Shown here: one piece after another, positions 3,084-42,861 of the stretch
Numbering within the stretch: the stretch's first letter is position 1
How the letters are laid out: each line of letters opens with the position of its first letter
From: Chiloscyllium plagiosum
Lineage: Eukaryota
DNA length: 63,674 nt
Direction of reading: 5' to 3'
Assembly: GCF_004010195.1 (NCBI RefSeq)
Contig: NC_057749.1
Coordinates: 19,360,432 to 19,424,105, forward strand
Position numbers and translations under genes: made by a program
The notes under the pieces: generated by a model
Seen by the model: only the letters and a program-made list of their open reading frames with translations
What the model was told of the DNA's origin: nothing
The model's database searches: none

Positions 3084-4540
3084 TTAACTTTTAACTGTAA
3101 GTAACTTCAAGCTTGTTTAAAGTTGTCACTTGAGAGGCTTACCAATTTCTTAACCAGGTGTTCTCATTTAAAGTTAAAACTTTAAATGATATTCACAGTA
3201 ATAGTATGCAAGGTCAACTGCAATCAACAACTTATGCAGTAAACACACATGAAGATGATGGAATTCTAATTTTGGTTTGATAGTGTTCGGTATATATGGT
3301 GGTTGGAGTCCAGCATGTAGAACGCAGAGTATTTGAATTCTGGCTGTGTCTCTCAGTGTGGTCCTCACAAGTTGGCGGGTCCACATGATGTTCCACTCAT
3401 TATTGCAAGGCAAAAAAAACAAGAGCCACTGAGATTAGTCATCCAAAGGGAGAGCAGATTTTGTGTCCTGAGAAACACTGGGGCAGCTAATTGTACACTT
3501 GATGACTTTAAATTTAGTTTGATGATCTTAAATAGCCTGATATCATGGAAATCACCTAGATTATATGAATAGTTTAGGAGTAAGTGAATAAACTGAGGAT
3601 AGCATTCATTCCAATTAACTGCTTTACTGCTGCAAGTAGTAAACATCTGTGCTGCTGCTGTTGAGAAATAGCTCTGTGCCAATTGCCCAGGTTCGGCCAC
3701 AGCTAGTTAAGTGTAAGTTGTGTTCAGCTGCTGAAACTTTATTGCTGGAACAGCACAGCAGGTCAGGCAGCATCTAGGGAACATGTTCAGAGCTAGTGTT
3801 TACTGGTTGAAAATCAGTGACTCCACCGTTCTAATCGATTAGTCCACATTTAAGGAAAAGAGAGTAAGTTTTTGTCAGGGAAAATGTCTAAGTCAGGCCT
3901 GCAGAGTAGAAACTTTATTGTAATCAAACATGGTAATTCCAAAGTAACTGATAGGAACTGTTCAAGCAGAGACTATTTCACTGACTCAGGTTCATTCAAA
4001 AGTGGGGAGACAGATACATACCCATGGGATTTCTGTATGGAAAGCTAACAGGAGCCAGAAGACCAGTAAGGTGTCTGAAATTCTGCTTCAAAGATGTTTG
4101 CAAAGGTGAAGTCAGGGCCCTATATATCAGTTTTTCACATGAGCCAATAAGAGACAACAATGATGACCTCATCTCTGTACCCTCAGGATGGTCCATGGCT
4201 ACATCAGTTTGGCAACAGGAGCTAACTCTGAAAATAATAACCCATAAAGATGCCTGATAACTACCTCACATCGTGGAAGTTATTGTTCAAGTTCCCTATC
4301 CTGATGGATTTGCTACATGTCCATGATCTCCAGTAGCTGGTAGTACCTCAGTGTTTATCCTCATTTGTTTTGCATTATGAAACTGTCACATAACTTTCTC
4401 ATACCCTGCTGACCTGCCTTGCCCTCCACGTCAGCATTTACTCTTGCTCTCATGTTCTGTCCACTCTAGGGTCTAGCTGTCAAATATTGATGAAGGTACT
4501 TATAAAAATCTCACATCACAAGTGAGTGCAAAGTATACAT

Positions 4541-6655
4541 AGTCATAGAGATGTACAGCACAGAAACAGACTCTTCAGTCCAACTCATCCATGCTGACCA
4601 GTTATCCTAAACTAGGAGAAAGTGAAGACTGCAGATGCTGGAGATCAGAGTAAAGAGTGTGGTACTGTAAAAGCACAGCAGGTCAGGCAGCATCTAAGGA
4701 CCAGGAGATTCGATATTTCAGGCATATGCCCTTCATCAGGAACTCTTGACTCAGATATTATAACCTAATGTAGTCCCATTTGCCAGTACTTGGCCCATAT
4801 TGCTCTGAACCCTTCCTATTCAGATGCCTTTTAAATGTTGTAATTGTACCAGTCTCCACCACCTGTTCTGGCAGTTCATTCCATACATGCCCTTTGCGTG
4901 AAAAAGTTGCCCCTTAGGTTCCTTATAAATTTTTCCTCTCACCCTAAACCTATGCCCTCTAGTTCTGGACTCCACCATCCCAGGGAAAAGACCTTGTCTG
5001 TTTATCCAATCCATGCCCCTAATGATTTTATAAACCTCTATAATGTCACCCTTCAGCATCTGATGCTCCTGGGAAAACAGCCTCAGCCTATTCAGCCTCT
5101 CCCTGTAGCTCAAATCCTCCAACCCTTGTAAATCTTCCTGAATCCTTTCAAGTTTCACAACATCCTTCCCATAGGAGGGAGACCAGAACTGCACACAATA
5201 TTCCAAAAGTAGCCTAATCAATGTCTTGTACAGCCGCAACATGACCTCCCAAATCCTATATTCACTGCTCTGTCCAATAAAGGAAAGCATACTAAACACC
5301 TTCTTCACTATCCTGTCTACTTGCGACTCCACTTTCAAGAACTGTGAACCTGCACTCCAAGGTCCCTTTGTTCAGTAACACTCTCCAGGACCTTAATATT
5401 AAGTTTATAAGTCCTGCCCTGATTTACCTTTCCAAATGCAGTACCTCACATTTATCTAAATTAAATTCCATCTGCCACTCTTCAGCTCATTCACCCATTT
5501 GATCAAGATCTTGTATGCTGACGTATCCTTCTTTTCTGTCCACTACACCTCCAATTTTGGTGTCATCTGTAAACTTCCTAACTACACCTCCTATGTTCAC
5601 ATTCCAAATCATTTGTATAAATGACAAAAAAACGGTGGACTCAGCGCCAATCCTTGTAGCACTCCACTGGTCACAAGCCTCCAGTCTGAATAACAACCCT
5701 CCACCAGCACCCTCTGTCTTTTATCTTCAAGCCAGTTCTGTATCCAAATGGCTAACACTCTTTGTATTCCATGAGATCTAACCTTGCTAACCAGTCTACC
5801 ATGACGAACCTTGTCAAACGCCTTACTGAAGTCCATGTAGATCATGTCCACTGCTCTGACGTCTTCAGTCCTCTTTGTTGCTTCTTCAAAAAAACTCAAT
5901 CAAGTCAGTGAGACATGATTTCCCATGCACAAAGCTATGTTGACTATCCCTAATCAGTGCTTGTCTTTCCAAATGCATGTGAATCCTGTCCCTCAGGATT
6001 CCCTCCAACAACTTGCCCACCACCGATGTCTGGCTTACTGGTCTATAGTTCCCTGGCATGTCCTTACCACCTTTATGAAACACACCACAATAGTCAACCT
6101 CCAGTTTTCTGGCACCTCACCTGTGACTATCTATAATACTAATATCTCAGCAAGGGGCCCAGCAATCACTTCCCTGGCTTCCCACAGAGTTCTAGGATAC
6201 ATCTGATCAGGCCCTGGAGATTTATCCACTTTTATCCATTTTAAGACACTCAGCACCACCTCCTCTGTAATATGGACATTTTTCAAGATGTCACCATCTA
6301 TTTCCCCACATTCTATATCTTCTATGTCCTTTTCCACAGTAAGCACTGATGCAAAATACTCATTTAGTATCTCCCCCATCTCCTGTAGTTCCACACATAG
6401 GCCACCTTGCTGATCTTTCAGGGGCCCTATTCTCTCCCTAATTACCCTTTTGTCCTTAATGTATTTATAAAATCTCTTTGGACTCTCCTTAACCCTATTT
6501 GCCGAAGTTATCTCATGTCCCCTTTTTTTCCCTCCTGATTTCCCTCGTATGTATACTCCTACTGCCTTTATACTCTTCTAAGGATACACTCAATCTCTGC
6601 TATTGATACCTGACATATGGTTCCTTCTTTCTCTCAACCAAAACCTCAATTTCCC
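4541..6655 (-). mobile_element. 5'-truncated HER1/CR1 LINE (RT region and 3' end), frameshifted
   Basis: ORF fragments [46 protein letters not shown]; ctatgact tail. Confidence 0.92.
4612..4750 (-). mobile_element. Penelope-derived short element (family A) nested in the LINE 3' end
   Basis: Matches the Penelope 3' terminus at 18500-18635; carries CTGATGA-GGGC/GCCT-GAAATATC; flanked by a diverged duplication of the LINE sequence cagatatcctaaccta. Confidence 0.8.
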
Positions 6656-6743
6656 TCGACTCTAATCTTTTGCCCGAAACGTCAATTTTCCTGCTCCTCG
6701 GATGCTGCCTGACCTGTGCTTTTCCAGCACCACCCTCTTGACT
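6655..6743 (+). mobile_element. Penelope-derived family A fragment
   Basis: gcccgaaacgtc...ggatgctgcctgacctg...ttttccagca matches other copies. Confidence 0.75.
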
Positions 6744-7399
6744 TGAAGATCAGTGGTAAAGTATTAATTTCCCTGGTCAATATTCATCAATTAGCCACCC
6801 TACCAAATATATAGATGCTGTCATCATTTACCTCATTACTGTGTGCAAAATGGTTCGCATGTTTATTTAAAGAAAGAATGACATGCAGTAACTTGAAGCT
6901 TTTCGCAATCATCATACATTGCAGTGTAATCACTGGTGTTTTAAAACAAAGACTGTGCTCTGAAAACAATTCACTGGCTATGAAGAATTTAGAATCATCA
7001 TGAGGGTATGTGCAAAATAAATGCAAAATACTCCTTTGTTTATGATGCTCTAAGAGTATGGAGTTCATTTGCGTTTGTGTGGCCAATCCCACTGATATAG
7101 ACCTCAAGCAGAAACAAATAAATTTAACAGGATCACAAAAACAAATTGGTGAGTTGGTGTTATCTCGAGCTACAAATTAGCAAGCATTAGAGATACCTCA
7201 AAGTTGAAACAGGAGCCTGGCTGAATCTGTGGTCTCTTGCAAGGCTAGGAGTACCACATTTAATTAATCTCAGTGGCCCAGATCTAGGGAAGGAGAGAGA
7301 ATATTCACTTGTAAATTCTCGATAGAGATCTATCACATCAGATCATTGGAGAGACACAAAATTAGAAGACCATCAAAAAAAGGCAAACAAAGCACCATA

Positions 7400-8300
7400 A
7401 AAATAAAACTGAAAAGCAGAAAGTGATGTGAAATATGTAGAGAACCTTGGTACACCACACTTGGAGTACTGTGAATAGCTCTGATCTCCATCATACAAAA
7501 AGGCAATAAGCATCAAAGGAAGTGCAGAAAAGATTCATGACAATGACATAAGAATGCAGAGGATACACTTATCTGAAAAGGTGATACGAAACTTGCTGAG
7601 GTGATAAACAGTGAGGATGGTCTTAGATTACAAGAGGATATAGATGGGCTGCTCAGTGGCAAATGGAATTCAATCTGGATAAGAGTGAGGTGATGCTCTT
7701 GGGCAGGACAAACAAGGTGAGGAATCCATGATGAATGGTCGTACCCTGAGGATCAAAGGGAACAGGGTGTGCAGGTACACTGGTCCCTTAAGGTAGCAGG
7801 ACAGGGAGATAAAGTGGTTAAGAAGACAACAGAAACAGAAAGTGCTTGAAAAACCCAGCAGGTCTAGCAGCTTCTGTGGAGAGAAATCAGAATTAACCAT
7901 TCAGTCAATTTTAGTAATAAAGACAGGTTGGATAAGTGGGGTTGTTTTCCTTGGAACAGAGGAGATGGATTTGCGTAAGAATATGAGGGCACATTCAGGG
8001 CAGACAGGAAGGAACTCTTTCCCCTTGGTAGAGTGATCAATATGGGCATAACTGAAGATAAAGGACAGGAGGTTTCAAGGTGATGTGAGGAAAAGTAATT
8101 TCACTCAGCTGATGGTGGGAATCAGGAACGCATTGCCTGGAAAGGTGTGGAGGCAGAAACCTTCATAACATTTAAGTACTGCAGTATTTAGAAGTGCACT
8201 TGGTCAAAGGCTGGGAAATGGATTAGGATAGTTAGGTATGTGGTTTTGAACATTGCAGGCTGGGTGAGCTGAAGGGTCTTTTTCTGTGTCATAGCTCTCT
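7400..8300 (+). mobile_element. Old degenerate CR1 fragments with a family C Penelope-derived piece at about 7826-7905
   Basis: Decayed LEYC.Q.WSP and W.MEFN-like coding remnants; CR1 3' stem-loop at about 8270. Confidence 0.6.
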
Positions 8301-8742: not shown

Positions 8743-8744
8743 TA

Positions 8745-11110: not shown

Positions 11111-11486
11111 TGTTGCCACACTGTCGGGATTCCATGGACTCCATGGCTAGGGCTTGTCTATTGAGAAAAGAGCAGACGAGAGAGATGAAGGGTAGATATG
11201 GAAAGGATGTTTCCACTTGTGATCAAGAATTAGAGATCACAAATGTAAAACTGCTGACAATAAATCAAATAGGAAATTCCAAAGAAGCTTATTTACCCAA
11301 TGAAGAGAATGTGTTTGAGGTGAGCAGCATAGATGCATTTAAGGAGAAGTTAGTTAAGCACAGAGGAAGGCTGGAATAGGGAAATACATTAATGTAGTTG
11401 GGTAAAGACATGGAAAGAGGACAGCATCAATACTGGTCTGAACCAGTGGAGCTGAATGGCCTGTTTCTGTGCTATAAATAACTCCT

Positions 11487-11931
11487 CCATCGCCAGACCA
11501 CAACAAAACGACGGTTGGAGGAAGAGCGCCTCATCTTCCGCCTAGGAACCCTCCAACCACAAGGGATGAACTCGGATTTCACCAGTTTCCTCATTTTCCC
11601 TCCCCCCACCTTGTCTCAGTCAAATCCATCGAACTCAGCACTGCCTTCCTAACCTGCAATCTTCTTCCTGATCTCTCCGCCCCTACCCCAGTCTGACCTA
11701 TCACCCTCACCTTAACCTCTTTCCACCTATCACATTTCCGACGCCCCTCCCCCAAGTCCCTCCTCCCTACCTTTTATCTTAGCCTGCTGGACAAACTTTC
11801 CTCATTCCTGAAGAAGGGTTTATGCCCGAAACGTCGATTCTCCTGTTCCCTGGATGCTGCCTGACCTGCTGCGCTTTTCCAGCAACACATTTTCAGCTCT
11901 GATCTCTAGCATCTGCAGACCTCACTTTCTC
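11487..11931 (+). mobile_element. 5'-truncated Penelope element 3' end with hammerhead-like core at 11808-11835
   Basis: Encodes the RRLEEERLIFRLGTLQPQGMN C-terminus; perfect 15-bp TSD CTATAAATAACTCCT at 11472-11486 and 11932-11946. Confidence 0.9.
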
Positions 11932-11971
11932 CTATAAATAACTCCTACCAAAGGTAAGCATTTAAAATGTA

Positions 11972-12172
11972 AAGATAAAGTTACCATCGTCCTACTGGAC
12001 CATCAGGGGCTGCTTTCTCATTAGAGAGAGAAGACTGTTGGTGGATTAACCTGAGGGCCACCATGCCTCAGGCACAGGGACAGGTTGATAACCTCAGCTG
12101 GCTTGGCAATTGAACCCACACCGTTAACATCACTTTGAGTCACAAACCAGCCATCCAGCTAAATGAGCTAAC
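11972..12172 (-). mobile_element. tRNA-derived SINE distinct from HE1
   Basis: Minus strand starts ggttagctcatttagctgg (A box) with ggttcaattgcc (B box) and ends in ggtaactttatcttt. Confidence 0.6.
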
Positions 12173-12480: not shown

Positions 12481-15400
12481 ATCTGGGTAATCCAAGATGG
12501 AGGACGGGAAAAATTTCTGGCTGTAAGAGCTGCTCCTTTTTTTGAGGTATTTTAGGTGTTGGAGGTGATTTCCTTGAATTCCAGGAGCAGCAATTACTGT
12601 TTTATATGCTGTTGCATTGTTTTGGAACTTTGGGGAAAAAAAAGTCAAAACAACAGTTTAAAAGGGAGAAGAGCAGACAAAGGAAGCACATGGTGAGGAC
12701 AGTGCTGGAGAGAGAGCGAGAACCTGCACAGTTACCGCCTTTGCTGTTTGAATTTGTGTACCGCTGGACATCGGAATGCATCTGGGAAAATTAACAAACA
12801 GTGAAATTCACAACTAATCTTGGAGGAACTGTTGGGCAAAGTTCACAGCACAGAATTAGATAAGTTAATTGTTGTTTTAAGTCTGTCCAAGAGAAAGGCT
12901 GCAATGGTGAGTATAGTGGATTCTTTCTTGATTATATGTTTTTGGAGATAAGTCTCTTGATTAAACTTAAAATATAAGCCATAGCTATTAATTTAACCTG
13001 GGGCAGTGTTTGTAGAGGAAAAAGACGGTGTTGTTTTCTGGGTCTGTAGATTGTGAAGGAGCAAAAATGGCCTTTGCAGTGATATGTACTTCTTGTCAGA
13101 TGTGGGAGTTTAAAGAGAGTTTGAGGGTTACTGCGGATTATATCTGCCATAAATGCTGTTGGATGCGAATCTTATCAGATCGAGTGGATCGGGTTGGAGA
13201 GACTGATAGAAGCGAAGAGGAATTTGCAACAGCAACAGTACGTGATGGATGGCAGTTATAGGAAGGAGGGATGTCTCAGATACAGTCACATAGATGGGTT
13301 AACTCCAGGAAGGGTAAGAGAGGTAGGCAGCTAGTACAGGAGTCTTTTGTGGATATACCCATTTCAAGCAGGTATGCTGTTTTGGAAAATGTAGGGGGTG
13401 ATGGATTCTCAGGGGACTGTAGCACAAACAGCCAAGTTTCTGGTATTGAGACTGGCTCTAATGCAACAAGGGGTACGTCGGCTTCCAATAGATCAATTGT
13501 TTAGGGGATTCTGTAGTCCGAGGTACAGACAAACGTTTCTGTGGCCAGCAGAGAAAAAACAGAATGATGTGTTGTTTCCCTGGTGCCAGGATCAAGGACG
13601 TCTNNNNNNNNNNNNNNNNNNNNNNNNNNNNNNNNNNNNNNNNNNNNNNNNNNNNNNNNNNNNNNNNNNNNNNNNNNNNNNNNNNNNNNNNNNNNNNNNN
13701 NNNNNNNNNNNNNNNNNNNNNNNNNNNNNNNNNNNNNNNNNNNNNNNNNNNNNNNNNNNNNNNNNNNNNNNNNNNNNNNNNNNNNNNNNNNNNNNNNNNN
13801 NNNNNNNNNNNNNNNNNNNNNNNNNNNNNNNNNNNNNNNNNNNNNNNAGGGCAGGCAGGGACAGGGTAGGACTAATAAATTAAACTGCATTTATTTCAAT
13901 GCAAGGGGCCTAACAGGGAAGGCAGATGAACTCAGGGCATGGTTAGGAACATGGGCCCAGGATATCATAGCAATTACGGAAACATGGCTCAGGGATGGGC
14001 AGGACTGGCAGCTTAATGTTCCAGGATACAAATGCTACAGGAAGGATAGAAAGGGAGGCAAGAGGAGGGGGAGTGGCATTTTTGATAAGGGATAGCATTA
14101 CAGCTGTGCTGAGGGAGGATATTCCCGGAAATATATCCGGGGAAGTTATTCGGGTGGAATTGAGAAATAAGAAAGGGATGGTCACCTTATTGGGATTGTA
14201 TTATAGACCCCCCCCAATAGTCAGAGGGAAATTGAGAAACAAACTTGTAAGGAGATCTCCGCTATCTGTAAGATTAATAGGCTAGTTATGGTAGGGGATT
14301 TTAACTTTCCAAACATCGACTGGGACTGCCATAGTGTTAAAGGTTTAGATGGAGAGGAATTTCTTAAGTGTGTACAAGACAATTTTCTGATTCAGTATGT
14401 GGTTGTACCTACTAGAGAAGGTGCAAAACTTGACCTACTCTTGGGAAATAAGGCAGGGCAGGTGACTGAGGTATCAGTGGGGGGGCACTTTGGGGCCAGC
14501 CACCATAATTCTATTAGTTTTAAAATAGTGATGGAAAAGGATAGACCGGATCTAAAAGTTGAAGTTCTAAATTGGAGAAAGGCCAATTTTGAAGAACTAT
14601 TGAAAGCTGATTGGAGGCAGATGTTCGCAGATAAAGGGATGGCTGGAAAATGGGAAGTCTTCAGAAATGAGATAACAAGACTCCAGAGAAAGTATATTCC
14701 TGTCAGGGTGAAAGGGAAGGCTGGTAGTTATAGGGAATGTTGGATGACTAAAGAAATTGAGGGTTTGGTTAAGAAAAAGAAGGAAGCATATGTCAGGTAT
14801 AGACAGGATAGATCGAGTGAATCCTTAGAGTATAAAGGAAGTAGGAGTATACTTAAGAGGGAAATCAGGAGGGCAAAACTGGGACATGAGATAGTTTTGG
14901 CAAATACAACTAAGGAGAATCCAAAGAGTTTTTACAAATATATTAAGGACAAAAGGGTAACTAGGGAGAGAATCAAAGATCAGCAAGGCGGCCTTTGTGT
15001 GGAGCCACAGAAAATGGGGGCGATACTAAATGAATATGTTGCATCAGTATTTACTGTGGAAAAGGATATGGAAGATATAGACTGTAGGGAAATAGATGGT
15101 GACATCTTGCAAAATGTCCAGATTACAGAGGAGGGAATGCTGGATGTCTTGAAACGGTTAAAGGTGGATAAATCACCAGGACCTGATCAGGTGTACCCGA
15201 GAACTCTATGGGAAGCTAGAGAAGTGATTGCTGGGCCTCTTGCTGAGTTTTTGTATCATCGATAGTCACAGGTGAAGTGCCGGAAGACTGGAGGTTGGCT
15301 AATGTGCCACTGTTTAAGAAAGGCGGTAAAGACAAGTCAGGGAACTATAGACCGATGAGTCTGACATCGGTGGTGGGCAAGTTGTTGGAGGGAATCCTGA

Positions 15401-16703
15401 GGGACAGGATGTACATGTATTTGGAAAGGCAAGGACTGATTCGGGATAGTCAACATAGCTTTGTGTGTGGGAAATCATGTCTCACAAACTTGAGTGAGTT
15501 TTTTGAAGAAGTAACAAAGAAGATTGATGAGGGCAGAGCAGTAGATGTGATCTATATGGACTTCAGTAAGGCGTTCGATGAGGTTCCCCATGGGAGACTG
15601 ATTAGCAAAGTTAGATCTCACGGAATACAGGGAGAACTAGCCATTTGGATACAGAACTGGCTCAAAGGTAGAAGACAGGGCGGTGATGGAGGGTTTTTCA
15701 GACTGGAGGCCTGTGACCAGTGGAGTGCCACAAGGATCGGTGCTGGGCCCTCTACTTTTTGTCATTTACATAAATGATTTGGATGCGAGCATAAGAGGTA
15801 CAGTTAGTAAGTTTGCAGATGACACCAAAATTGGAGGTGTAGTGGACAGCAAAGAGGGTTACCTCAGATTACAACAGGATCTGGACCAAATGGGCCAATG
15901 GGCTGAGAAGTGGCAGATGGAGTTTAATTCAGATAAATGCGAGGTGCTGCATTTTGGGAAAGGAAATCTTAGCATGACTTATACACTTATTGGTAAAGTC
16001 CTAGGGAGTGTTGCTGAACAAAGAGACCTTGGAGTGCAGGTTCATAGCTCCTTGAAAGTGGAATCGCAGGTAGATAGGATACTGAAGAAGGTATTTGGTA
16101 TGCTTTCCTTTATTGGTCAGAGTACTAGTACAGGAATTGGGAGGTCATATTGCAGCTGTACAAGACATTGGTTAGGCCACTGTTGGAATATTGCGTGCAG
16201 TTCTGGTCTCCTTCCTATCGGAAAGATGTTGTGAAACTTGAAAGGGTTCAGAAAAGATTTACAAGGATGTTGCCAGGGTTGGAGGATCTGAGTTATAGCG
16301 AGAGGCTGAGTAGGCTGGGGGTGTTTTCCCTGGAGTGTCGGAGGCTGAGGGTGACCTTATAGAGGTTTACAAAATTATGAGGGGCATGGAAAAGGTAAGT
16401 AGATAAAGTCTTTTCCCTGAGGTCTGGGAGTCCAGAACTAGAGGGGCAACCTAAGAGACCTAAGGGGCAACGTTTTTACGTAGAGGGTGGTACGTGTATG
16501 GAATGAGCTGCCAGAGGATGTGGTGGAGGCTGGTACAATGGCAACATTTAAGAGGCATCTTGATGGGTATATGAATAGGAAGGGTTTGGAGGGATATGGG
16601 CCGGGTGCTGGCAGGTGGGACTGGGTTGGGATATCTGGTCGGCATGGACGGGTTGGACCGAAGGGTCTGTTTCCATGCTGTACATCTCTCTGACTCTATG
16701 ACT
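12481..16703 (+). mobile_element. Near full-length HER1/CR1 LINE (5' UTR, ORF1, ORF2 APE+RT), several frameshifts, N gap at 13604-13847
   Basis: ORF1 from ATG 13067 with CxxC..CxxC and esterase-like GDSVVRG / CFPGARIKDV; ORF2 with [44 protein letters not shown]; 3' ctctatgact tail. Confidence 0.95.
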
Positions 16704-16720
16704 GTAAGTGCCCATGGGAT

Positions 16721-18635
16721 GAGGAGGGTGTGCCAAGCAGGCTAAGATAAAAGATAGGGAGAAGGGACTTGGGGGAGGGGCGTTGGAAATGCGATAGGTG
16801 GAAGGAGGTTAAGGTGAGGGTGAAAGGCCGGAGAGGTCGGGAAGAAGATTGCAGGTCAAGAAGGCGGTGCTGAGTCCGAGGGTTGGGACTGAGAAAAGGT
16901 GGGGGGAGGGGAAATGAGGAAGCTGTAGAAATCTGTATTCATCCCTTGTGGTTGGAGGGTTCCTAGGCGGAAGATGAGTCGCTCTTCCTCCAGGCGTCGT
17001 GTTGCCATGGTCTGCGGATGGAGGAGGCCACGGAACTGCATGTCCTTGGCGGAGTGGGAGGGTGAATTAAAGTGTTCAGCCATGGGGCGGTTGGGTTGAT
17101 TGGTGCGGGTGTCCCAGAGGTTTTTCTGAAACGTTCCGCAAGTAGGCGGCCTGTCTCCGCAATGTATCGGAGGCCACATCGGGTGCAGCGGATGCAGTAA
17201 ATGATGTGTGTGGAGGTGCAGGTGAATTTGTGATGGATATTGAAGGATCCCTTGGGGCCTTGGAGGGAAGTGAGGGGGGAGGTGCGGGTGCAAGTTTTGC
17301 ATTTTTTGCGGTTGCAGGGGAAGGTTGGGAGTGGAGGTTGGGTTGGTCGGAGGTGTGGATCTGACGAGGGAGTCGCGGAGGGAGTGTTCTTTCCGGAACG
17401 CTGATAGGGGTGGGGAGGGAAATATATCCTTGGTGGTGGGGTCCGTTTGGAGGTGGCGGAAATGACGAAGGATGATCCGATGTATCTGGAGGTTGGTGGG
17501 GTGGTAGGTGAGGACTAATGGGGTTCTGTCCTGGTGGCGATTGGAGGGGCGGGGTTCAAGGGCAGAGGTGCAGGAAGTGGAGGAGATGTGGTGGAGAGCA
17601 TCGTCAACCACGTCTGAGGGGAAATTGCGGTCTTTGAAGAAGGAGGCCATCAGGGTTGTTCAGTATTGGAATTGGTCCTCCTCGGAGCAGATGCGGCGAA
17701 GGCGAAGGAATTGGGAATATGGGATGGCGTTTTTACAGGGGGCAGGGTGGGAAGAGGTGTAATCTAGGTAGCTGTGGGAGTCAAGTCGGTTTATAGTATA
17801 CGTCCGTGTTGAGTCGGTCGTCCGAGATAGAGATGGAGTGGTCTAGGAAAGGGAGGGAGGAGTCTGAGACGGTCCAGGTAAATTTGAGGTCAGGGTGGAA
17901 GGTGTTAGTAAAGTGGATGAACTGTTCAACCTCCTCGTGGGAGCACGAGGTCGCGCCGATACAGTCATCAATGTAGTGGAGGAAAAGGTGGGGGTGGTGC
18001 CAGTGTAGCTGCGGAAGATGGACTGTTCCACATACCCTACGAAGAGGCAGGCATAGCTAGGGCCCATGCGGGTGCCCATGGCTCCTCCTTTGGTTTGGAG
18101 GAAGTGGGAGGATTGGAAGGAGAAGTTGTTAAGAGTGAGGACCAGTTCAGTCAGTCGAAGGAGAGTGTCAGTGGAAGGGTACTGGTTGGTTCAACGGGAA
18201 AGGAAAAAGGCCTCAAAGCCCTCCGCTTCTTCCTTTCCCACCTAGGAACCCTCCAACCACAAGGGATGAATACAGATTTCTCCAGCTTCCTCATTTCCCC
18301 TCCCCCCACCTTTTCTCAGTCCCAACCCTCAGACTCAGCACCGCCTTCTTGACTTGCAATCTTCTTCCCGTCCTCTCCGCCTCCACCCCCCCGCCAACCT
18401 ATCACCCTCACCTTAACCTCCTTCCACCTATCGCATTCCCAACGCCCCTCCCTCAAATCTCTCCTCCCTACCTTTTATTTTAGCCTGCTTGGCACATCCT
18501 CCTCATTCCTGAAGAAGGGCTTAAGCCCGAAACGTCGATTCTCCTTCTCCTTTGATGCTGCCTGACCTGCTGCGCTTTTCCAGCAACACATTTTTAAGCT
18601 CTGATCCCCAGCATCTGCAGTCCTCACTGTCTCCT
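16721..18635 (-). mobile_element. Penelope-like element: minus-strand RT C-terminal half plus GIY-YIG endonuclease (16721-18207), joined to an inverted plus-strand 3' terminus (18211-18635)
   Basis: Motifs MGTRMGPSYACLF, YIDD, IYCIRC..CGL.YI.ETGR.L.ERF and AEHFN; perfect 14-bp TSD AGTGCCCATGGGAT at 16707-16720 and 18636-18649. Confidence 0.93.
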
Positions 18636-24638: not shown

Positions 24639-24761
24639 CAAGATCAGGTGGTGCTGGAAAAGCACAGCAGGTCAGGCAGCATCCGAGGAGCAGGGAAATC
24701 GATGTTTCGGGCAAAAGCCCTTCATCAGGACGATTCCAGCATCTGCAGCACCTACTTCCAC
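24639..24761 (-). mobile_element. Penelope-derived family A element with an inverted short terminus
   Basis: 15-bp TSD CTGGT(T/A)TTGCAGAGT at 24624-24638 and 24762-24776; minus-strand CTGATGAAGGGCTTTTGCCCGAAACATC. Confidence 0.85.
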
Positions 24762-25635: not shown

Positions 25636-25860
25636 TTAATCCTGGACTCATTGATTAACTGACATAGAGGAGGCAGTGTCAGTGGCTTGACAAATCAAAA
25701 GACTTTGCCAGTGACCAGTTGTACCTGGTTTGTTGGTATGTCAGAGAAAATGTGGACAAAGTTAAAAATTACACTACATCAGATTAAAGTATGATTTTTT
25801 TATATAGCTATTTTTATTGAAAATTTAACATGTTTTTACAAGTTTACAAATTTAAAAAAA

Positions 25861-26066
25861 AGCTGAAAATGTGTTGCTGGAAAAGCGCAGCAGGTCAGGC
25901 AGCATCGAAGGAGCAGGAGAATTGACGTTTCGGGCATGAGCCCTTCTTCAGGAAATTGCCCGAAACGTCGATTCTCCTGCTCCTTGGATGCTGCCTGATC
26001 TGCTGCGCTTTTCCAGCAACACATTTTCAGCTCTGATCTCCAGCATCTGTAGTCCTCATTTTTCCC
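25861..26066. mobile_element. Palindromic Penelope-derived family A element in the L1 3' UTR
   Basis: About 76-bp inverted arms (25861-25936 and 25957-26032); minus-strand core CTGAAGAAGGGCTCATGCCCGAAACGTC. Confidence 0.88.
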
Positions 26067-29000
26067 TACAAATAAAAAAAACCCAAGTATAAACATTGAT
26101 ATACAATTAAATCTTAAATAAATAATAACCAAAATCTATCAGACAGAAAAGAAGAGATACCGAGAAAAAAATGACAAAACTCAATTAACAACTAATCTAA
26201 CCTACAACTAACCAGAGTGTATGATTAAATCTCTTACATTATTCAAGAAAAGAAAAAAAACCAAGGGATAACACAGAAATTGAGTAGTAAAGTACATGCT
26301 CGGAATGTGTTAACATTAGATCGTAACAAAACCTGTATTCGTGCGGGATTCCTCTCCCAAGGGGCCCCGGACCAGCCAGGTTCGCCATCTCAATTAAATA
26401 AAAGCCCTTGTTAGAATGGTTGAAATATCTGTATTTATGTAATTCAAGAAGGGTTGCCATATTTTATGGAATAATTCAGTTTTTTGGTGCACCATGTTTG
26501 TAAGGAAGTCAAGGGGAATACATTCCATGATTAATCTGTGCCAATTCGAAAGTCCAGGAGGGCCCTCAGCCACCCAGTTTACCAAAATATTTTTCCTTGC
26601 ACAGAAAGAGCGAATGGAAAATAATCTCTTCCTGTGCACATCCAGGGAGGGTGAGTTCAAAAAGCCCAAAAGGAGAGATACAGGGTCCACTCTAATTTCC
26701 GTTCCCAAGATTTCTGTCAGAGCATTTGCTACTTTAGTCCAATATCTACAGATCTTATGACAGGTCCATAGCAATGTGCAAGAGTGCTCACCTCTATTTT
26801 ACATTTGGGACACATTGGAGATGCTCCTGCCTTAAATTTTGCCAATCGGTCCGGTGCTATATGGGCCCTATGAAGTATCTTCAATTGAATGGCCTGAGTT
26901 CTGTTGCAGATGGAGATTTTTCTGGCATTTTCCCAAATGTCATTCCACTTTCTATAGAGATTTCCAGTCCCAAACCTGATCCCATGTTTTAAGCAGATTG
27001 TCCATATCTTCTGTTGTCCATATCTTCTGATACTTCATCATGTAATAAATGATAAAGAGTGCTGACCGAAGGTACCCCTATTGGCCATAACACTCTACGT
27101 TCTCTGTCTGATTTATAAAGACTACCTAATAGCGTCGTCTTCTTCTGTATGTAATCTCGAATTTGGAAGTATCAAAAGAGATCTCCATTAGGTAATCCAA
27201 ATTTCTGATGCAGATGTTCAAAAGACATCAGGACCACTTCCTTAAACAGATCTCCTAAACAGAAGATACCCCTGGATCTCCAGAGTTTGAAAGTGGCATC
27301 TGTAAGCCCCCACTATCGGAGTATAAGGGGATGTTTTATGTGAATTGCCTTCATTTTGCCGCATTATATTCCAAGCTTTAATTGTGTTTAGTATTATAGG
27401 GTTTTTACATTGATCCGTGATGATTTTCCTTTTGTCTGAAAATAAGAGGTTAATAAGTGGGCATTTTACTTGAGAAGCCTTGATGTCCAGCCAGATTGAT
27501 TGCGGGTCAGACAAGACCCAATCGGCTATGTAACTTAATAGGGAACTTAACTGATATTTCCTAAAATCTGGGAAATCCAGACCTCCCCTTGCCTGTGGAA
27601 GCTGTAGCTTCTTCAGCTTAATGAGGGGCCGTGTACAATTCCAGATGAAGGAACCCAGCTAGCCACACAATTTACGTAGTGCCAGTCTCTGCATCATCAC
27701 CGGAAGCATTCTCATAGGGTATAGGAGACGGGGCAGGACATTTCATTTTAATTAGTGCTATTCTACCTGACCAGGAAATTGGAAGGCCTCCCCATTGCTG
27801 GAGGTCCTGCCTTATCCTCTCTACTAAATGCACAAAGTTAGCCTTGTATAACTGGCCAAATACTGGGGTGATAAAAATGCCTAAATATAAGAAACCCTCC
27901 AGGGACCACCGAAAGGGAAAGTGGGATCCGTCCGATAGGTGGGATATACCAGCCCATTGGCATAGCCTCTGATTTTGAAAAATTAATTTTATAGCCTGAA
28001 AATGCACTAAATGTATTAATCACTTGGATTAAGCGAGGCACGGACATCAGGGGATTACTGAGGAATAGGAGAACATCATCTGCATTAAGGCTAATTTTAT
28101 GTTTACCTATACCAATCCTCGGGGCCGTTATATTAGGATCAGTCCGTATAGCTTCTGCTAGTGGCTCGATTATTAGCGTAAATAGCAATGGTGAGAGAGG
28201 ACATCCCTGACGGCAGCCCCTACCCACACTGAAGCTATCCGAGCCTAATCATTGGTAATCATAATTGCTTTGGGATCATTATATAGTGTTGAGACCCATT
28301 TGGCAAACACTTTTTCAACGCCAAACCTTTCCAATGTGTAAAACAGATATGAACATTCAACCCTGTCGAATGCCTTTTCTGAGACTATTACTCCTGGTAT
28401 CTTTCCCTGATGGCAGGCTTGAATCACATTCAAAACCCTTCTAACATTATTGGATGATCTACGGCCCTTAATAAACCCTGTCTGATCCTCCTTTATGATG
28501 TATGGCAATACCCTTTCTAGCCTCAATGCTAACGTTTTAGAAAGAATTTTAAAATCTACATTTAACAAGGATATTGGTCTGTATGACGCGCAATCTTCTG
28601 GGTCCTTTCCATTTTTGAGAATGAGAGAGATATTTGCCTCTTTCAGCGAAGACGGGAGACAGCCCTGACTGTATGAGTAGTTATACATGTCCATAAGTGG
28701 ACCAGCCAATATTCCTGTAAATTCTTTATAGAATTCAGCTTGAAAGCCATCTGGGCCAGGGGCCTTACTGCTCTGAAGTTGCCTGATTTTTCAAGTATTT
28801 CTTGGCTTGTTAGGGGAGCATTCAGGACCGATACCTGTTCTTAGGTCCGGAAAGGTCAGATTTTTAAAAAATGACTGCATCCTCCTAGTTCTGTCTTCGC
28901 AATCCTGCGATTTATATAAATCAGAATAAAATTTTCTAAAGATTGCATTAATCCTTTTATGATCATGAGTCAGAGTACCCGTACTTTCCTTGATAGACGT

Positions 29001-29363: not shown

Positions 29364-29465
29364 TTATGCCTAAAACGTCGATTCTCCTGCTCATTGGATG
29401 CTCCACTATTCCAGCAACACATTTTCAGCTCTGATCTCCAGCATCTGCAGTCCTCACTTTCTCCC
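29364..29465 (+). mobile_element. Penelope-derived family A fragment at the L1 deletion junction
   Basis: aaacgtcgattctcctgctc...gcatctgcagtcctcactttctcc terminus. Confidence 0.8.
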
Positions 29466-29981
29466 TGTTTAAATTTAGTACAGAGCAATTAATTACATTC
29501 AGTAAAAACAATTTTAAATGATTTGGTAAGTATGGTGAAGGCGGGTGGACCATTTTGCCCAAGTCTTGGGAGGAACACTATAGACTCAGACTTGCTGCGT
29601 CGCCGCCAACTTGGATCTCCAAAGTATGATTTTTAACTTTGTCCACCCCAGTCCAACACTGGCACCTCTGCATCAGAGAGAATGTGGGCACGTCTGTGTT
29701 TTGTATCATTGATTGTTATGCTAAGCAGTTGAATGGCATCAGGAGCCACCACTACAGCACTAGACAACATTGTCTATAAATAAGTAAAAAGAATTGAAAT
29801 AGGCCATTGTTAACCTAATCCATGATTAAGATAGATATTCAAAATTCTTTCACACTGTGATTCACACAATAAGTTTCTTCTGAAGTACTGCTCGAGGATT
29901 CAACAAGGTGAAGCATTATATAAAAGCAAATATTATGTGTCCTGTGTGGGGGTGGTGGGTAAATTCTCATTATCGGTGTGA

Positions 29982-30425
29982 GGTGATACTCTTTATCTGC
30001 CCTGTGCCTGTACAGGCTAATGGCATCTGCTCTGAATCTGTTTGGAATGATGGTATCTGCTCTGAATCTGTTTGGAATGATGGTATCTGCTCTCTGTCTG
30101 TACAGCCTGATGGTATCCACTCTGTATCTGTATAGTATGATGGATCTGTTTTGTATCTATGCAGAGTGATGGAATCTGTTTCTGCATGAGATGATAGTAT
30201 TTTCTCTATTTATATGGGGTTCTAGTTCTCTGTATTTGTCTGGGGTGACAGTATCTGCTCTGTGTCTTTACTGGATAAAGGTATCTGATCTGTGACTGTA
30301 TGGGCTGATAGCATCTGCTCTGTTTCTGTATAGGGTGATGTTATCTTCTCTGTATAACATGGTAGATCTGCTCTAGCTGTACTGGATGATGGTATCTCCT
30401 CTGTAATTGTACAGTGATGGAATCA
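29982..30425. repeat. Minisatellite with a 30-bp unit (about GATGGTATCTGCTCTGTATCTGTACAGGCT), roughly 15 diverged copies
   Basis: Periodic recurrence of gatggtatctgctctg; two near-identical units at about 30020-30080. Confidence 0.88.
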
Positions 30426-34211: not shown

Positions 34212-34453
34212 AAAAACCCAAAGAACTGTGGATACTGAAAATCTGAAACTAACACAGAAATTGCTGGAAAAACTCAGAGGAGATGGCAGCATCTGTGGAA
34301 GGAAAGCAGAATTAACATTTTGGGTACAGTGACCCTTCTTCAGTTCTTCACTTCAGAGTTCTGAAGAAATGTCTTTGGACGTGAAAGATTAACTCTGCTT
34401 TCTGTTTACAGATGCTCCCAGGTTTGCTGACTTTTTCCAGCAATTTCTGTTTT
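34212..34453. mobile_element. Older palindromic Penelope-derived element (family C) with hammerhead-like cores
   Basis: Inverted arms acagaaattgctggaaaaa... / ...tttttccagcaatttctgt; CTGAAGA cores on both strands; related partial copies at about 7826, 36520, 53890 and 55820. Confidence 0.7.
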
Positions 34454-36200: not shown

Positions 36201-36941
36201 GCCTTAGGGTGTTTTACTACCTCCAAATCCGAAAAGATCACGTCAAATTGTTATTACAATTTCTGACAGTCTTTTAAATATACATGCAAAGTGACATCTC
36301 CATTAAATTTCACACTTTCACATACTCAGTTTGCTCTTCTGTTGAGTTTACCTTTTGGGTTGTATATATAGTTAGACTGGAGGGATGATATTGGCTTGGA
36401 ATAGTTTGTTATCACTCATGTTATAAATACAGTTGTTGGATTTTCTGTCCATCCCAACTCATTGTACACCCGTCCTGATACAGGCAGACTGGAGAAATGG
36501 GTAAGTAAAAGCAAACTACCATGGGTTTGGGAGATCGGAAATAAAAACAGTAAGTGCTGGAGAAACTCAGCAGGGCTGGTCACATCTATGAAGAGAGAAA
36601 CATTTTGACGCTGGTATGTAGGGTAATCACACTTTGGCAGTGCAGACACATATCATGTAACAGCACCTAAAACATTGTCCATGTAAGCAGCCTGTAAGAT
36701 ATACCAAGCTGTAGCTGATGGGTGGTAGACTGTACACTGGTCTGTACCTGGGAGTATGTGAATCTGCCTGCTGATACCTAATGAAACTTAGTTGCCCCTG
36801 TAGTAGTGCAAACTACATTCTGGGGAACTGGATCTCTTGTGGCATATGTGTTTACCAGATCTTGTGTGGATGTAGGGCAAGAAGGGCTAGGGTACTGGCA
36901 CAGGGATGAGCTTGTGATATTGTGTCACAGTATATGAAACT

Positions 36942-37149
36942 AGGAGAAAGCGAGGACTGCAGGTGCTGGAGCCCAGTGTCGAGAGTGTGATGCTGGAAAA
37001 GCACAGCTGGTCATGCAGCATCCGAGGAGCAGGAGAGTCGACGTTTCAGGCATAAACCATTTCCTAATGAAGGGTTTATGCCCAAACGTCGGTTCTCTGC
37101 TCCTTGGATGCTGCCTGGCCTGCTGTGCTTTTCCAGCATCACACTCTTG
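36942..37149. mobile_element. Palindromic Penelope-derived family A element
   Basis: Perfect 15-bp TSD ACAGTATATGAAACT at 36927-36941 and 37150-37164; inverted arms of about 80 bp. Confidence 0.9.
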
Positions 37150-37336
37150 ACAGTATATGAAACTGCAGAACATTTGTGCTTTTGTCAAAATCTGTGACTC
37201 TTTGCAAACATCAGTCCTGTACTGACCAGGAGTTAATTATTTCTGACCTTGCATGACTGATTTGAGTTTTGGGGTGCCTGATAGTGATTTTGACCTGGCT
37301 GAGAACATGGTGGTGTCTGTTTGCTTTCCCCAACAG

Positions 37337-39357: not shown

Positions 39358-39359
39358 GG

Positions 39360-40772: not shown

Positions 40773-40800
40773 CAACAGCAGGTTTTAGATTCTGAGTGGG

Positions 40801-41480
40801 TAAGAATCACACAACATCACGTTATAGTCCGACAGGTTTACTTGGAAGGATTAGCTTTTGGAGCGCTGCTCCTTCATCAGATGGTTGTGGAGTCTAAGAT
40901 CGTAGGACACAGAATTTATAGCAAAAGTGATGTAACTGAAATTATACATCGAAAATGACCAGGATTGTTTGTTAAGTCTCTCATCTTTTAGAATGTGTAA
41001 ATTTGTACTTATGAAATGACATTTTATTTTGCTAAAAACTACAAGAGTCCATGTAAATTTCTGTAAATCCCTTTTTTTAGATTAGATCAGTCTGAACATT
41101 GGGTCACAGACAGTCTCACACCTTCAGTGCAATATCTGAGTCAACATGGCACCTATTGTTAAATTTCACTTGAGAATGTAACTTAAAGAAAGTTCTGCAA
41201 TTTACATATGAAAGAATTGAAACCAACATACCCATTCTAAAAGTTGAGAGACTTAACACCTCAATCCAGGTCTTTTTTCAATATATATTTGCAGTTACAT
41301 CACACTGTAAATTTTTGCTATAAATTCTGTGTCCTATGATCTTAGACTCCACAACCACCTGATGGAAGGAGCAGCGCTCCGACAGCTAGTGCTTCCAATT
41401 AAACCTGTTGGATTATAACCTGGTGTTGTGTGATTTTTAACTTTATACACCCCAGTCCAACACTGGCACCTCCAAATCAT
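40801..41480. mobile_element. Long inverted-arm Penelope-derived element (family B)
   Basis: About 200-bp inverted arms, each with CTGATG(G)AAGGAGC..GCTCC..AGCTA; terminus ccccagtccaacactggcacctccaaatca shared with the copies at 29640 and 47414. Confidence 0.8.
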
Positions 41481-41801
41481 AAGAATAGAATGTTTGTTAT
41501 ACTAAATGAATTTGTTTTGTTTTGACCATCTACCAGACTATAGGATATTCTAATCAAACAACATGGTATATTAGCATCCTGTCACCCAGACTAAGCACGT
41601 AACTGCAACCAGTTCAGATTGATATAGTGAAAAAAAGTTTGCAAATTCATAATTCTCACCTTTATTCTTATGCAGTTTATGCAACTGACCCTGCATTTTA
41701 ATTCCAAACCTGTCATTATTAATGAATATGCTGCTTACTCCATGGGCTCCCCTTGCTGTCTGATAACTGAAGACTGAACGGTTATTTCTGCTGTCTTGCA
41801 G

Positions 41802-41913: not shown

Positions 41914-42069
41914 GCTATCCTTGTCAAAACTGGGCCTCATACAGGATTGCTATTAATAAGTTTCTTTTTAAATTATCATTGTGTTGTATTTAGGAACTAT
42001 TTCAATCAAGCATACTGTAGCAAATGAAGTGTGTTATTTAATGAAATTACCAACACAAAACACTACTGA

Positions 42070-42075
42070 ATTAAA
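42070..42075 (+). terminator. Candidate MAN2C1 polyadenylation signal (ATTAAA)
   Basis: ATTAAA about 160 nt after the stop, with UGUA motifs upstream; an alternative AATAAA lies at about 43138. Confidence 0.35.
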
Positions 42076-42644
42076 AGGTATTTCTTGATCATTCCTTACA
42101 CTGTTTACACTAGAGTGCGAGTTGCTAGTTTTCACATATGACTGAAGGTAGAATGTTAGGGTCTCAGCAGCAGCAACAACAGATATTATACAGCAGTTTT
42201 GACATCGTAAATTGGATCAAGCTGCCATCAAAAACTAGTGAGAGACTCGGAAGGGTGAACAAAACGTTGTTCTAAGGTGAACTTTAAGCAGTATTTTGAT
42301 GAAGAAATTTAGAAAGGGAATGATAGAGTGTAGGGCCTGAAGGCAACGGCCACAGATGGAAGGCACAGAGTATTTGACGTAAAACACCAGAATGGGTGAA
42401 GCACATCGGGTTGTGGAGCATTGTAGAAGATTGCAGGGACAGGGAGAGACTTTAATAGCAGAATGGAAATGTTAAATTCATGGCCAGCAAGCCTGGGAGT
42501 GAGATATGACTGGGACTGATGAGAGTTAAAATTTGGCTTCCCATATTTTATGTAAATTTACAGAGGGTATAAAATGGAAGACTGGCTAGGGGAATGTTGC
42601 AAGAGTCCAGTCTGCGCTTAACAGTATGTGGATTTCAGCAGCAG

Positions 42645-42861
42645 TTGTGTTTGTTGTGAGAAAAGCACTGCAGGTCAGGCAGCATCCGAGGAGCAGGAAA
42701 ATCCACATTTTGGGCCGGAGTCCTTCATCGGGAATGATGAAGGGCTCAAGTCTGAGATGTCGATTCTCCTGTTCCTCAGATGCTGCCTGACCTGCTGTGC
42801 TTTTCCAACAACACATACTTGACTCTGATTTCCAGCAGTTGCAGTCTTCACTGTCTCCTAA
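42645..42861. mobile_element. Palindromic Penelope-derived family A element
   Basis: 14-bp TSD GATTT(C/T)AGCAGCAG at 42631-42644 and 42862-42875; inverted arms. Confidence 0.85.

Follow-up and report, generated by a model that had tools for sequence, protein, structure and literature searches.

Most short insertions of a Penelope-like retrotransposon in a shark genome begin just before their hammerhead motif

Ten insertions in a 63,674-nucleotide stretch of the genome of the shark Chiloscyllium plagiosum (contig NC_057749.1, positions 19,360,432 to 19,424,105; the window) were found by blastn and alignment to belong to one Penelope-like element (PLE) family, here called family A, and comprise 14 arms of at least 40 nt. 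They are almost certainly the end module of a shark Neptune-type Penelope-like retrotransposon. This element type and its ribozyme have already been described, and the observation is real and largely known. The less ordinary point is that most of the short copies (stubs) begin just before the hammerhead and not at its cut site, as if this were where the copied RNA starts. The best reading is that the stubs are made anew from the autonomous element and not by a separate non-autonomous family, and we consider it somewhat probable that they are cDNAs primed about 95 or 130 nt into an uncleaved RNA and running off its 5' end.

The initial annotation had placed a family member at ten sites, all of which were borne out by blastn and alignment, and the high density that it reported stands: 39.1 kb carries the ten insertions, one per 6.2 kb of non-N window, and together with the long copies they occupy 5.6% of the window. 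The system can however not be called active as suggested there, since the window holds no intact ORF and the insertions are about 77–96% alike. In the following list and throughout, positions are those of the window, and reference positions within family A are those of the copy 11482-11934 on the plus strand.

3730-3783, minus: short arm without hammerhead and without tail (blastn, alignment), starting at reference 11844; no convincing TSD
4613-4742, minus: single arm of subfamily b with intact core (4739-4712) and tail, starting 3 nt before C3; TSD not found
6668-6745, plus: single arm of subfamily b with half a hammerhead (starting in loop II), without tail; no convincing TSD
11482-11934, plus: 5'-truncated copy of subfamily a with hammerhead and tail, containing the last 56 codons of the endonuclease frame, a stop at 11650-11652 and a spacer of about 150 nt; exact 15-bp TSD at 11472-11486 and 11932-11946
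16716-18636, both strands: insertion of the next two arms; exact 14-bp TSD at 16707-16720 and 18636-18649
16716-18213, minus: long inverted arm of broken PLE coding sequence and 3' spacer, ending at reference 11807, with RT motifs B-E, thumb, CX4CX2C linker and GIY-YIG-type endonuclease, 4 frameshifts, 2 premature stops and no N-terminal part; 4/5 microhomology with its TSD
18214-18636, plus: direct arm with an RT-region piece of about 25 nt, the end of the endonuclease frame and spacer before the hammerhead (intact core 18509-18536), and tail
24640-24730, minus: arm of subfamily b with intact core (24728), without tail (alignment, strict motif)
24732-24761, plus: inverted tail-only piece (30 nt) of the same insertion, read from the sequence; 15-bp TSD with 1 mismatch at 24624 and 24762
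25861-26068, both strands: head-to-head pair of subfamily a, minus arm 25861-25954 (intact core, without tail) and plus arm 25957-26068 (starting in loop II, with tail); 15-bp TSD with 2 mismatches at 25845 and 26067
29364-29464, plus: single arm of subfamily a starting in loop II, with tail and a 12-nt internal deletion; the flanks share only an 8-bp AT-rich repeat
36941-37151, both strands: head-to-head pair of subfamily b, in which the minus arm 36941-37061 has a tail and lacks the CUGA half and the plus arm 37061-37151 has a mutated core and no tail; exact 15-bp TSD at 36927 and 37150
42645-42860, both strands: older head-to-head pair with a mutated core in both arms, the minus arm 42652-42741 being tailless and the plus arm 42735-42860 carrying a tail; 14-bp TSD with 1 mismatch at 42631 and 42862

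The same 3' terminus had been assigned to nine places. The family is present at each of them, but the terminus is complete, with intact core and tail on one arm, at three only (4613-4742 on the minus strand, 11805-11934 and 18506-18636). In addition, the positions given for arms on the minus strand mark their far ends; this concerns 3743, 4612 and 24639 as well as a single arm in each of 25861, 36942 and 42645. The head-to-head pairs at the last three places and the inverted tail piece at 24639 had gone unreported. TSDs of 14–15 bp flank six of the ten insertions; none was found for three, and a fourth has a weak one of 8 bp. Half of the insertions are inverted, four of these being short head-to-head pairs. 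There are two sites of 3' ends, separated by about 37 nt, which delimit the PLE 'tail', and in all four short pairs exactly one arm carries this tail, while the pair centres all differ. The TSDs, the head-to-head pairs and the two 3'-end sites are described PLE traits.

A Penelope-like origin is supported by the coding remnant, whose nearest relatives are carpet-shark proteins. It aligns to the shark proteins P0001 and P0002 (tblastn, E 3e-123 and 3e-118), homology to which indicates a single ORF with a PLE-type RT and, C-terminal to it, a GIY-YIG endonuclease; GIY-YIG and RVT_1 matches were obtained on P0001, and a Pfam scan of the three broken PLE pieces of the window returned 0 families. 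IIYCIRCTRCGLRYIA is present in the remnant, the last G of YIG being A in the dead copy. Its linker CNRKKCKTC, a pattern shared by 40 of 50 long homologues, is of the CX2-5CxxC type, which according to the accessible text of PMC8557442 precedes the endonuclease in Neptune and Nematis and is absent from Penelope and Poseidon. Neptune is preferred over Nematis because Neptune and Poseidon are the vertebrate PLE groups in the accessible part of Li 2026 (10.64898/2026.07.22.740005). Family A also shows the pLTR with inverted adjacent copy, optional tail of 30–40 bp and TSD expected of a PLE. A metagenome scan with P0004 yielded no relative (95 pattern matches, 0 confirmed). In the literature covered, with most subscription journals and Repbase outside its scope, neither a paper on this shark family nor a shared 5' edge at a PLE hammerhead was found, and the accessible parts of PMC12602865 and PMC8782182 held nothing further on it.

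Direct attachment of the terminus to PLE coding sequence holds at 11482-11934 and 16716-18636 (tblastn), but the arm layout of the latter has to be corrected: its 1.5-kb coding arm is on the minus strand and stops at the hammerhead 5' edge, and the hammerhead lies on the inverted plus-strand arm together with about 110 nt of coding sequence. Given the missing N-terminal part, the frameshifts and the premature stops, this coding copy is a 5'-truncated dead sibling of the short copies rather than their parent, and an intact full-length PLE ORF, as autonomy would demand, is absent from the window.

The motif itself is a minimal hammerhead as described for PLE pseudo-LTRs, in agreement with the initial annotation. 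In the reference copy, the features on the plus strand are:

11802-11808: initiator-like TCATTCC, a putative function; A11804 is the common 5' edge of short copies
11804-11839: minimal type I hammerhead motif with weak helix I, predicted to cleave; core CUGAAGA 11808-11814, extra A 11815, helix II 11816-11827, GAAA, palindromic ACGU 11831-11834, predicted cut between 11835 and 11836
11854-11933: open frame that begins at a conserved ATG and continues across the tail, the putative start of the next unit's ORF
11898-11934: optional tail of about 37 nt between two 3'-end classes, with loose ends at 11933/11934

The strict motif CTGANGANGGGYNNNNGCCYGAAA matched five times in the window against 0.00 in 100 shuffles. 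All 11 core nucleotides are kept in 5 of 13 motif-bearing arms, and the minimal-hammerhead core C3-A9, G12-A15.1, U16.1 and H17 is likewise complete in 5 of 13; the CUGA half is missing from the arms 6668, 25957, 29364 and 37061(-), and the arm 3783 is without the motif. The extra nucleotide before helix II, a minimal-hammerhead trait, and a 2-nt loop III occur in 8/8 descriptor matches in the window, and family A has the G10.1-C11.1 pair and the palindromic helix III position of PLE hammerheads. The latter reads ACGT in 8 of 12 arms and otherwise ATAT, ACAT or ATGT (twice), which are products of CpG decay, as had been suspected. The varying stem II loops reported before (TTAT, TTAA, TCAT, TTTT, ATAT) were all recovered, plus TCCG and TCAA, and stem I is indeed weak, with 0–4 consecutive pairs in the five intact arms.

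Covariation of the stems, the check named in the initial annotation, was negative within family A: with eight arms, 277 of 500 shuffles scored as high for the percentage paired and 233 of 500 for the covariation score, and changes in helix II are one-sided or pair-breaking. The families B, C and D in the window combine different helix I/II sequences with the same hammerhead architecture, differences that would fit covariation between masters. Non-CpG changes hit 3/96 core positions versus 50/578 downstream, which is not significant (p = 0.07); helix II changes equal those downstream (6/72, p = 1), and loop II is more variable than downstream (10/45, p = 0.007), partly through junction edges and old arms. 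The monomer folds without the active hammerhead form, with a helix I pairing probability of 0–0.45. The helix-III dimer was absent from the minimum-energy dimer folds of 5/5 arms, the 4-bp duplex contributing only -1.7 kcal/mol. CUGAAGA was also predicted to pair with the short 3' end, but this was rejected because the subfamily b alignment shows no counterpart. Rfam gave no hammerhead match at E up to 1 and five matches of miRNA models on hairpins, all below gathering score, and in annotation the related palindromes come up as false miRNA precursors. The dead copies of family A carry the hammerhead as a passenger; in master elements it was probably kept as a dimer- or protein-assisted ribozyme.

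Ten of the 11 short arms start within 20 nt of the hammerhead 5' edge (reference 11805-11823), and none starts at 11836. In detail, 5/10 insertions start at 11805-11806, for which the chance is at most 2e-4 under uniform truncation over 100–405 nt, and 5/11 short arms start 4–18 nt further in. Public runs, which may stem from related species and not from that of the window (word shares 0.61 and 0.29), point to the same place: 11804 is the only 5' loose-end site listed for all three runs with data (X1 299, X21 206 reads, X15 82); a further run, X22, contributed 0 reads. The flanks at these loose ends are unlike (agreement 0.31–0.40), and depth past 11804 rises about 8-fold in DNA contigs and about 17-fold in RNA reads. 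Self-cleavage by the hammerhead could have been a source of short template, given the full core in five arms and the same architecture in three other families of the window, but the copy ends already contradict it: 10/11 short arms carry sequence 5' of the cut site, and the listed 5' loose ends lie at 11804 and at 11823, those close to the cut site (11834, X15) numbering only 6. We give this explanation next to no probability. RNA ends at the predicted site, which the initial annotation had called for, did not appear as a pile-up of starts or ends in one polyA single-cell run, which is a weak test.

Initiators conform to YYANWYY or TCAKTY. A11804 belongs to such a sequence, a match noticed after the fact; the 453 nt of the reference contain 8 YYANWYY and 3 TCAKTY matches, a base rate of about 2% per position and about 5% within one base. 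A DPE at the usual spacing from 11804 is absent. The RNA runs list no site where many molecules begin, and 93% of 3,427 RNA reads continue into dissimilar sequence, and do so on both strands; these reads are passenger transcription. None of the splice joints listed uses the acceptor-like AG near 11782, and A-to-I editing, RNA versus DNA, was not significant (67/54 vs 32/33, p = 0.44). The ATG frame 11854-11933 had no homologue and, against 124 proteins, did not exceed its shuffles (best score 40, shuffled maxima 33–44), so an ORF start there is unproven.

According to the explanation that we favour, the element RNA would start at or within 1–2 bases of A11804, before the hammerhead. The PLE protein nicks the target with the 14–15 nt stagger shown by the TSDs, and reverse transcription begins at either of two internal positions, about 95 or 130 nt further downstream; the two 3'-end classes show this, and in vitro work has demonstrated it for the anole PLE. 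Since the copies span the cut site, the template is uncleaved RNA. If the module copy at the RNA 5' end is used, the cDNA would run off after 95–130 nt and be inserted as a stub; use of the 3' copy in tandem read-through RNA would yield an ordinary longer 5'-truncated copy, and priming by both nicked strands may join two cDNAs head to head with a new palindrome centre each time. The accessible text on the anole element (Frangieh 2024, PMC11167929) reports that the tail is delimited by two internal positions at which RT begins, that both strands are cut and extended, and that hammerhead mutants still insert. In support there is also the internal promoter in the pLTR of D. virilis Penelope (PMC2377424). 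Against this explanation, the D. virilis start lies about 120 nt upstream of hammerhead helix I with an intron between (PMC2377424 and a second source), and a pair of family-B copies reach far beyond the 5' side of their hammerhead. In the long arm 16716 it is the 3' end and not the 5' end that lies at the edge, contrary to what simple run-off would lead one to expect. The lack of a visible start in the RNA runs, the base rate of the initiator match, the missing DPE and the short arms that start further in count against it as well.

The sharp common 5' edge, and the fact that short sequence outweighs long, could also result from a true non-autonomous family. Its master would be either a short RNA of about 130 nt, consisting of hammerhead and RT-binding module, or a palindrome; it would have its own transcription and be mobilised in trans by the PLE protein, in line with proposals for animal retrozymes. 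PLE-derived non-autonomous retrozymes are reported for the one chondrichthyan genome in the accessible part of Li et al. 2026 (10.64898/2026.07.22.740005), and no coding-linked copy of subfamily b exists in the window, so subfamily b may represent a short lineage of its own. In subfamily a, the stubs 25954(-), 25957 and 29364 are however 88–94% like the coding-linked copies, share their diagnostic bases and have no common private bases against them. Together with palindrome centres that differ in 4/4 pairs, this argues against a separate self-propagating family as put forward initially; in addition, there is no head-to-tail tandem among the ten insertions, unlike in retrozymes, and, as a weak point, no discrete short RNA in the RNA reads. 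Such a family appears unlikely.

The end of the long arm 16716, primed at the hammerhead edge with its microhomology, would instead suit a truncation hot spot, in which RT on a long RNA is stopped, or the cDNA or target is cut or primed, at this edge owing to a bound protein, RNA structure or an endonuclease preference for ATT. The sequence at the edge, A-TT, is the one at which the anole enzyme cuts most frequently according to the accessible text of PMC11167929, and pair centres of families B and C also lie at the hammerhead 5' edge, with no strict initiator match as read from their letters. Against this, a structural block would be expected 3' of helix II and most ends lie 5' of it, and helix I pairs in the monomer with a probability of only 0–0.45; we regard this explanation as rather unlikely. 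Self-priming on an antisense template, which the accessible text of Arkhipova et al. 2013 (PMC3846280) proposes for head-to-head PLE repeats, would account for the hairpin-like centres of the four pairs, and RNA reads are found on both strands, but by itself it does not explain single-arm stubs with the same 5' edge, and both outer ends match sense-strand RT start sites shown in vitro (PMC11167929, accessible text). As a source of palindromes and stubs it is very doubtful.

Returning to run-off from uncleaved RNA, the stubs may tentatively be likened to retroviral strong-stop DNA: with priming by the PLE protein some 95 or 130 nt inside its own capped mRNA, the 5' leader would be inserted singly or, when both nicked strands contribute, as two leaders head to head. 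If true, the genome would hold a very large fossil map of the transcription start and both RT start sites, the hammerhead would sit uncut at the mRNA 5' end during transposition, and long hairpins scattered through the genome could supply RNA silencing directed at the element. How PLEs transpose is poorly understood, including the formation of inverted repeats and tails and the role of the hammerhead, and family A provides many clean integration products with fixed ends, which makes the run-off idea cheaply testable.

Among known systems, the accessible parts of which are compared here, the metazoan PLE hammerheads (Cervera and De la Pena 2014, PMC4209133) share with family A the type I core with an extra nucleotide between A9 and G10.1, the G10.1-C11.1 pair, palindromic helix III position and short helix I, and the prevalence of solo copies from truncated PLEs with close opposite-strand pairs. 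Family A differs in its 2-nt loop III and, with a helix II of 4 bp, from the schistosome example (7–8 bp); those parts of PMC4209133 report neither sharks nor a common 5' edge of solo copies. Like endonuclease-bearing PLEs (Arkhipova 2013, PMC3846280; Craig 2021, PMC8557442), family A shows 5' truncation, an adjacent inverted copy, a 30–40 bp tail at one end only, TSDs, palindromic head-to-head junctions and a pLTR that putatively reaches into the first ORF codons, but its TSDs are 14–15 bp and not 8–10 bp as in the rotifer examples, and most insertions are only the last 95–130 nt. With Poseidon_Ac of Anolis (PMC11167929) it has in common that RT begins at two internal positions 3' of the hammerhead, that the RNA template is uncleaved and that RNA-seq ends are lacking at the cut site; Poseidon_Ac belongs to a different clade without the CX2-5CxxC linker, and its ORF starts at helix II, whereas the first in-frame ATG candidate of family A lies 19 nt past the cut site. 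Finally, the non-LTR retrozymes (Li et al. 2026, 10.64898/2026.07.22.740005) are likewise short, hammerhead-bearing, PLE-related and non-coding, but they are defined as tandem arrays in which two or more successive units each contain a complete hammerhead, whereas family A copies stand singly or head to head and are flanked by TSDs.

A blastn search of the window with 11470-11950 as query matched 14 arms (oriented copies) of family A, a Penelope-like element (PLE) family with hammerhead-bearing ends, and these were grouped by their junctions into 10 insertions, namely five single arms, three head-to-head pairs, one arm with an inverted tail piece and one 1.9-kb inverted structure. Arms of less than about 40 nt would escape detection. 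The shared 3' terminus which the initial annotation had listed at nine places is real insofar as arms were found, but it is complete on one arm at only three of the nine.

Family-A insertions in the window (blastn and junctions)
3730-3783, minus strand, single arm
4613-4742, minus strand, single arm
6668-6745, single arm
11482-11934, single arm, reference copy
16716-18636, 1.9-kb inverted structure
24640-24761, arm plus 30-nt inverted tail piece
25861-26068, head-to-head pair
29364-29464, single arm
36941-37151, head-to-head pair
42645-42860, head-to-head pair

The minus strand of 16716-18213 codes for reverse transcriptase (RT) motifs, thumb, a CX4CX2C linker and a GIY-YIG-type domain, and the coding strand carries the hammerhead about 155 nt past the stop codon. 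When this remnant was searched among longer proteins, four of five matches were named for Rhincodon, Chiloscyllium and Stegostoma, which makes a carpet shark the probable source of the window. P0001, a homologous shark PLE protein, has GIY-YIG and RVT_1 matches. A linker before the endonuclease marks Neptune and Nematis, whereas Penelope and Poseidon are without it, according to Craig 2021 (PMC8557442). Family A is recognised as an endonuclease-bearing PLE from its domain, its CCHH cysteines, its tail and inversion and its target-site duplication (TSD). The remnant lacks the N-terminal part and contains four frameshifts and two premature stops, so that this copy cannot be the coding parent it had been taken for, and no copy within the window qualifies as an autonomous endonuclease-bearing PLE.

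At the junction of the long inverted insertion (18205-18245) a short sense-oriented piece of the RT region bridges both arms via pyrimidine microhomology, which is a template-switch signature. The left TSD of this insertion is also exactly where a LINE remnant several kb long (~13400-16707) ends, which matches AP-endonuclease and RT and which we take to be CR1-like, and the right flank (18637-18900) is likewise LINE-like, indicating that the long PLE inserted into nested LINE debris.

Exact TSDs surround 11482-11934 (15 bp), 16716-18636 (14 bp) and 36941-37151 (15 bp). Three further insertions have TSDs of 14-15 bp with one or two mismatches and one has an 8-bp flanking repeat only; flank comparison found no TSD for three of the ten. 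Two kinds of 3' end occur, one near 11898 and the other at 11934 (here and below in positions of the reference copy), separated by a 37-nt tail that is present on a single arm in all four short pairs. This matches the optional tail of known PLEs, given as 30-40 bp in Craig 2021 (PMC8557442) and Arkhipova 2013 (PMC3846280) and shown by Frangieh 2024 (PMC11167929) to run from one internal RT start site to another. Subfamily a, one of two family-A groups (a and b) defined by diagnostic bases, has CAACACATT (11883-11891) at its short 3' end, and the RT-start stem-loop printed in supplement 1 of PMC11167929 contains these 9 nt too; a match of this length may be due to chance.

The short arms share a 5' edge: ten of eleven begin at 11805-11823, including five at 11805-11806, and one begins at 11844. 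Counted per insertion, 5/10 begin at 11805-11806, with a chance of at most 2e-4 under uniform truncation. The predicted cut, 11835|11836, marks the 5' end of none of the eleven, and a short template made by ribozyme cleavage is scarcely credible. The sequence TCATTCC, whose A is at 11804, fits the initiator consensus; eight initiator-type matches in 453 nt give the base rate. A polypyrimidine tract ending in TTAG (11763-11782), 22 nt upstream of the edge, is splice-acceptor-like, and no splice joint matching it near 11782 is among the joints listed from the sequencing runs. In D. virilis Penelope an intron ends at the hammerhead, according to PMC2377424 and Cervera 2014 (PMC4209133).

Four of 24 public runs were compared with 11440-11980 at 80% likeness, a cut at which diverged upstream parts may have been lost, and related species may be the source of the runs; one of the four, X22, yielded no reads. 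The main listed 5' loose end is 11804 in all three runs with data (299, 206 and 82), the flanks at these ends disagree (agreement 0.31-0.40), and the listed 3' loose ends are 11933-11934 and 11888-11893. Depth past the 5' edge is ~8x that upstream in DNA contigs, where contig depth is no copy number, and ~17x in RNA reads. In the RNA run, reads cover both strands, 93% of the 3,427 matched ones run on into unlike sequence, and neither starts nor ends pile up at the positions listed, RNA ends being poorly tested by a polyA single-cell library; together, these observations indicate that passenger transcription was seen.

The insertion products show that the nicks were staggered, that there were two start sites, that the template was uncleaved and that the 5' edge is sharp. 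We suggest that this edge would be the 5' end of the element RNA, that priming at the module's 5' copy would give run-off stubs of 95-130 nt and priming at the 3' copy in tandem RNA long copies, and that priming by both strands would produce head-to-head pairs, a scheme which as a whole we rate slightly better than even. For the anole enzyme, Frangieh 2024 (PMC11167929) describes cutting and extension of both strands with no requirement for cleavage by the hammerhead. A separate non-autonomous master producing the short copies, which would agree with subfamily b having no long copy in the window, seems unlikely as the diagnostic bases of subfamily a are shared with coding-linked copies and the pair centres differ in four of four. 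A stop or priming hot spot at the 5' edge on a longer template, suggested by the primed end of the long arm at 16716 at the same edge, appears quite unlikely, and antisense self-priming, as in Arkhipova 2013 (PMC3846280), highly improbable; the latter and ribozyme cleavage fit worse than run-off, separate master or hot spot. If the run-off reading, which we hold tentatively, is true, it opens both the start site of the PLE and the hammerhead's role to direct testing.

Thirteen arms extend into the region past the hammerhead and five keep all 11 core nucleotides. The strict motif has five matches in the window vs 0.00 in 100 shuffles. A relaxed descriptor finds eight motifs, five from family A and one each from three other families, all with an extra nucleotide and a 2-nt loop III and six with at least two helix I pairs, vs one such match in 30 shuffles.

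Other hammerhead families and repeats in the window
47411-47622; 40801-41006 (minus strand); 41220-41482; 29627-29668: family B, second PLE hammerhead family
34251-34453: family C, third family, head-to-head pair centred at the motif
near 7822-7903, 36543-36596, 55858-55910: family C fragments
49014-49045: lone minimal-hammerhead-like motif, 5-bp helix II, ACGU
26394-28790, minus strand: broken RT-bearing non-LTR element of another family, RVT_1 match
29972-30415: degenerate 30-bp tandem repeat

Family B includes a nearly perfect palindrome that is flanked by a 13-bp repeat and has its centre at the 5' edge of the hammerhead. Two nearby opposite-strand copies share >100 nt upstream of the motif, and in Rfam the family scores as plant miRNA precursors, below gathering score. 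Family C is kin to family A downstream of the hammerhead (helix I 6 bp, helix II 5 bp). No further copy of the lone motif was found within the window.

The stem covariation to which the initial annotation had looked is not seen above shuffles among eight family-A arms, no helix II pair having changed on both sides; its suspicion of CpG decay in the palindrome holds, since departures from ACGT at the helix III position are CpG decay products. Changes are more frequent in loop II (10/45) than downstream (50/578; p = 0.007), and core conservation above downstream sequence is not significant (p = 0.07), a pattern that weakly fits constraint in masters and neutral decay in copies. Folding yielded helix II without the active hammerhead fold, in monomer or dimer. 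The pair transcript 25861-26068 is predicted to form a long hairpin (-157 kcal/mol), and such hairpins would bury the motif.

A literature search, with Repbase and most subscription journals outside its scope, found no paper on the family-A shark PLE or the shared 5' edge. Each architectural trait of family A is already known from other PLEs, solo minimal hammerheads and those on opposite strands among them. Retrozymes, in contrast, need tandem units, which family A does not show. Its motif is like the minimal hammerheads of PLE pseudo-LTRs in Cervera 2014 (PMC4209133), with which it shares the extra nucleotide after A9, the G10.1-C11.1 pair, the palindromic helix III position and a short helix I.
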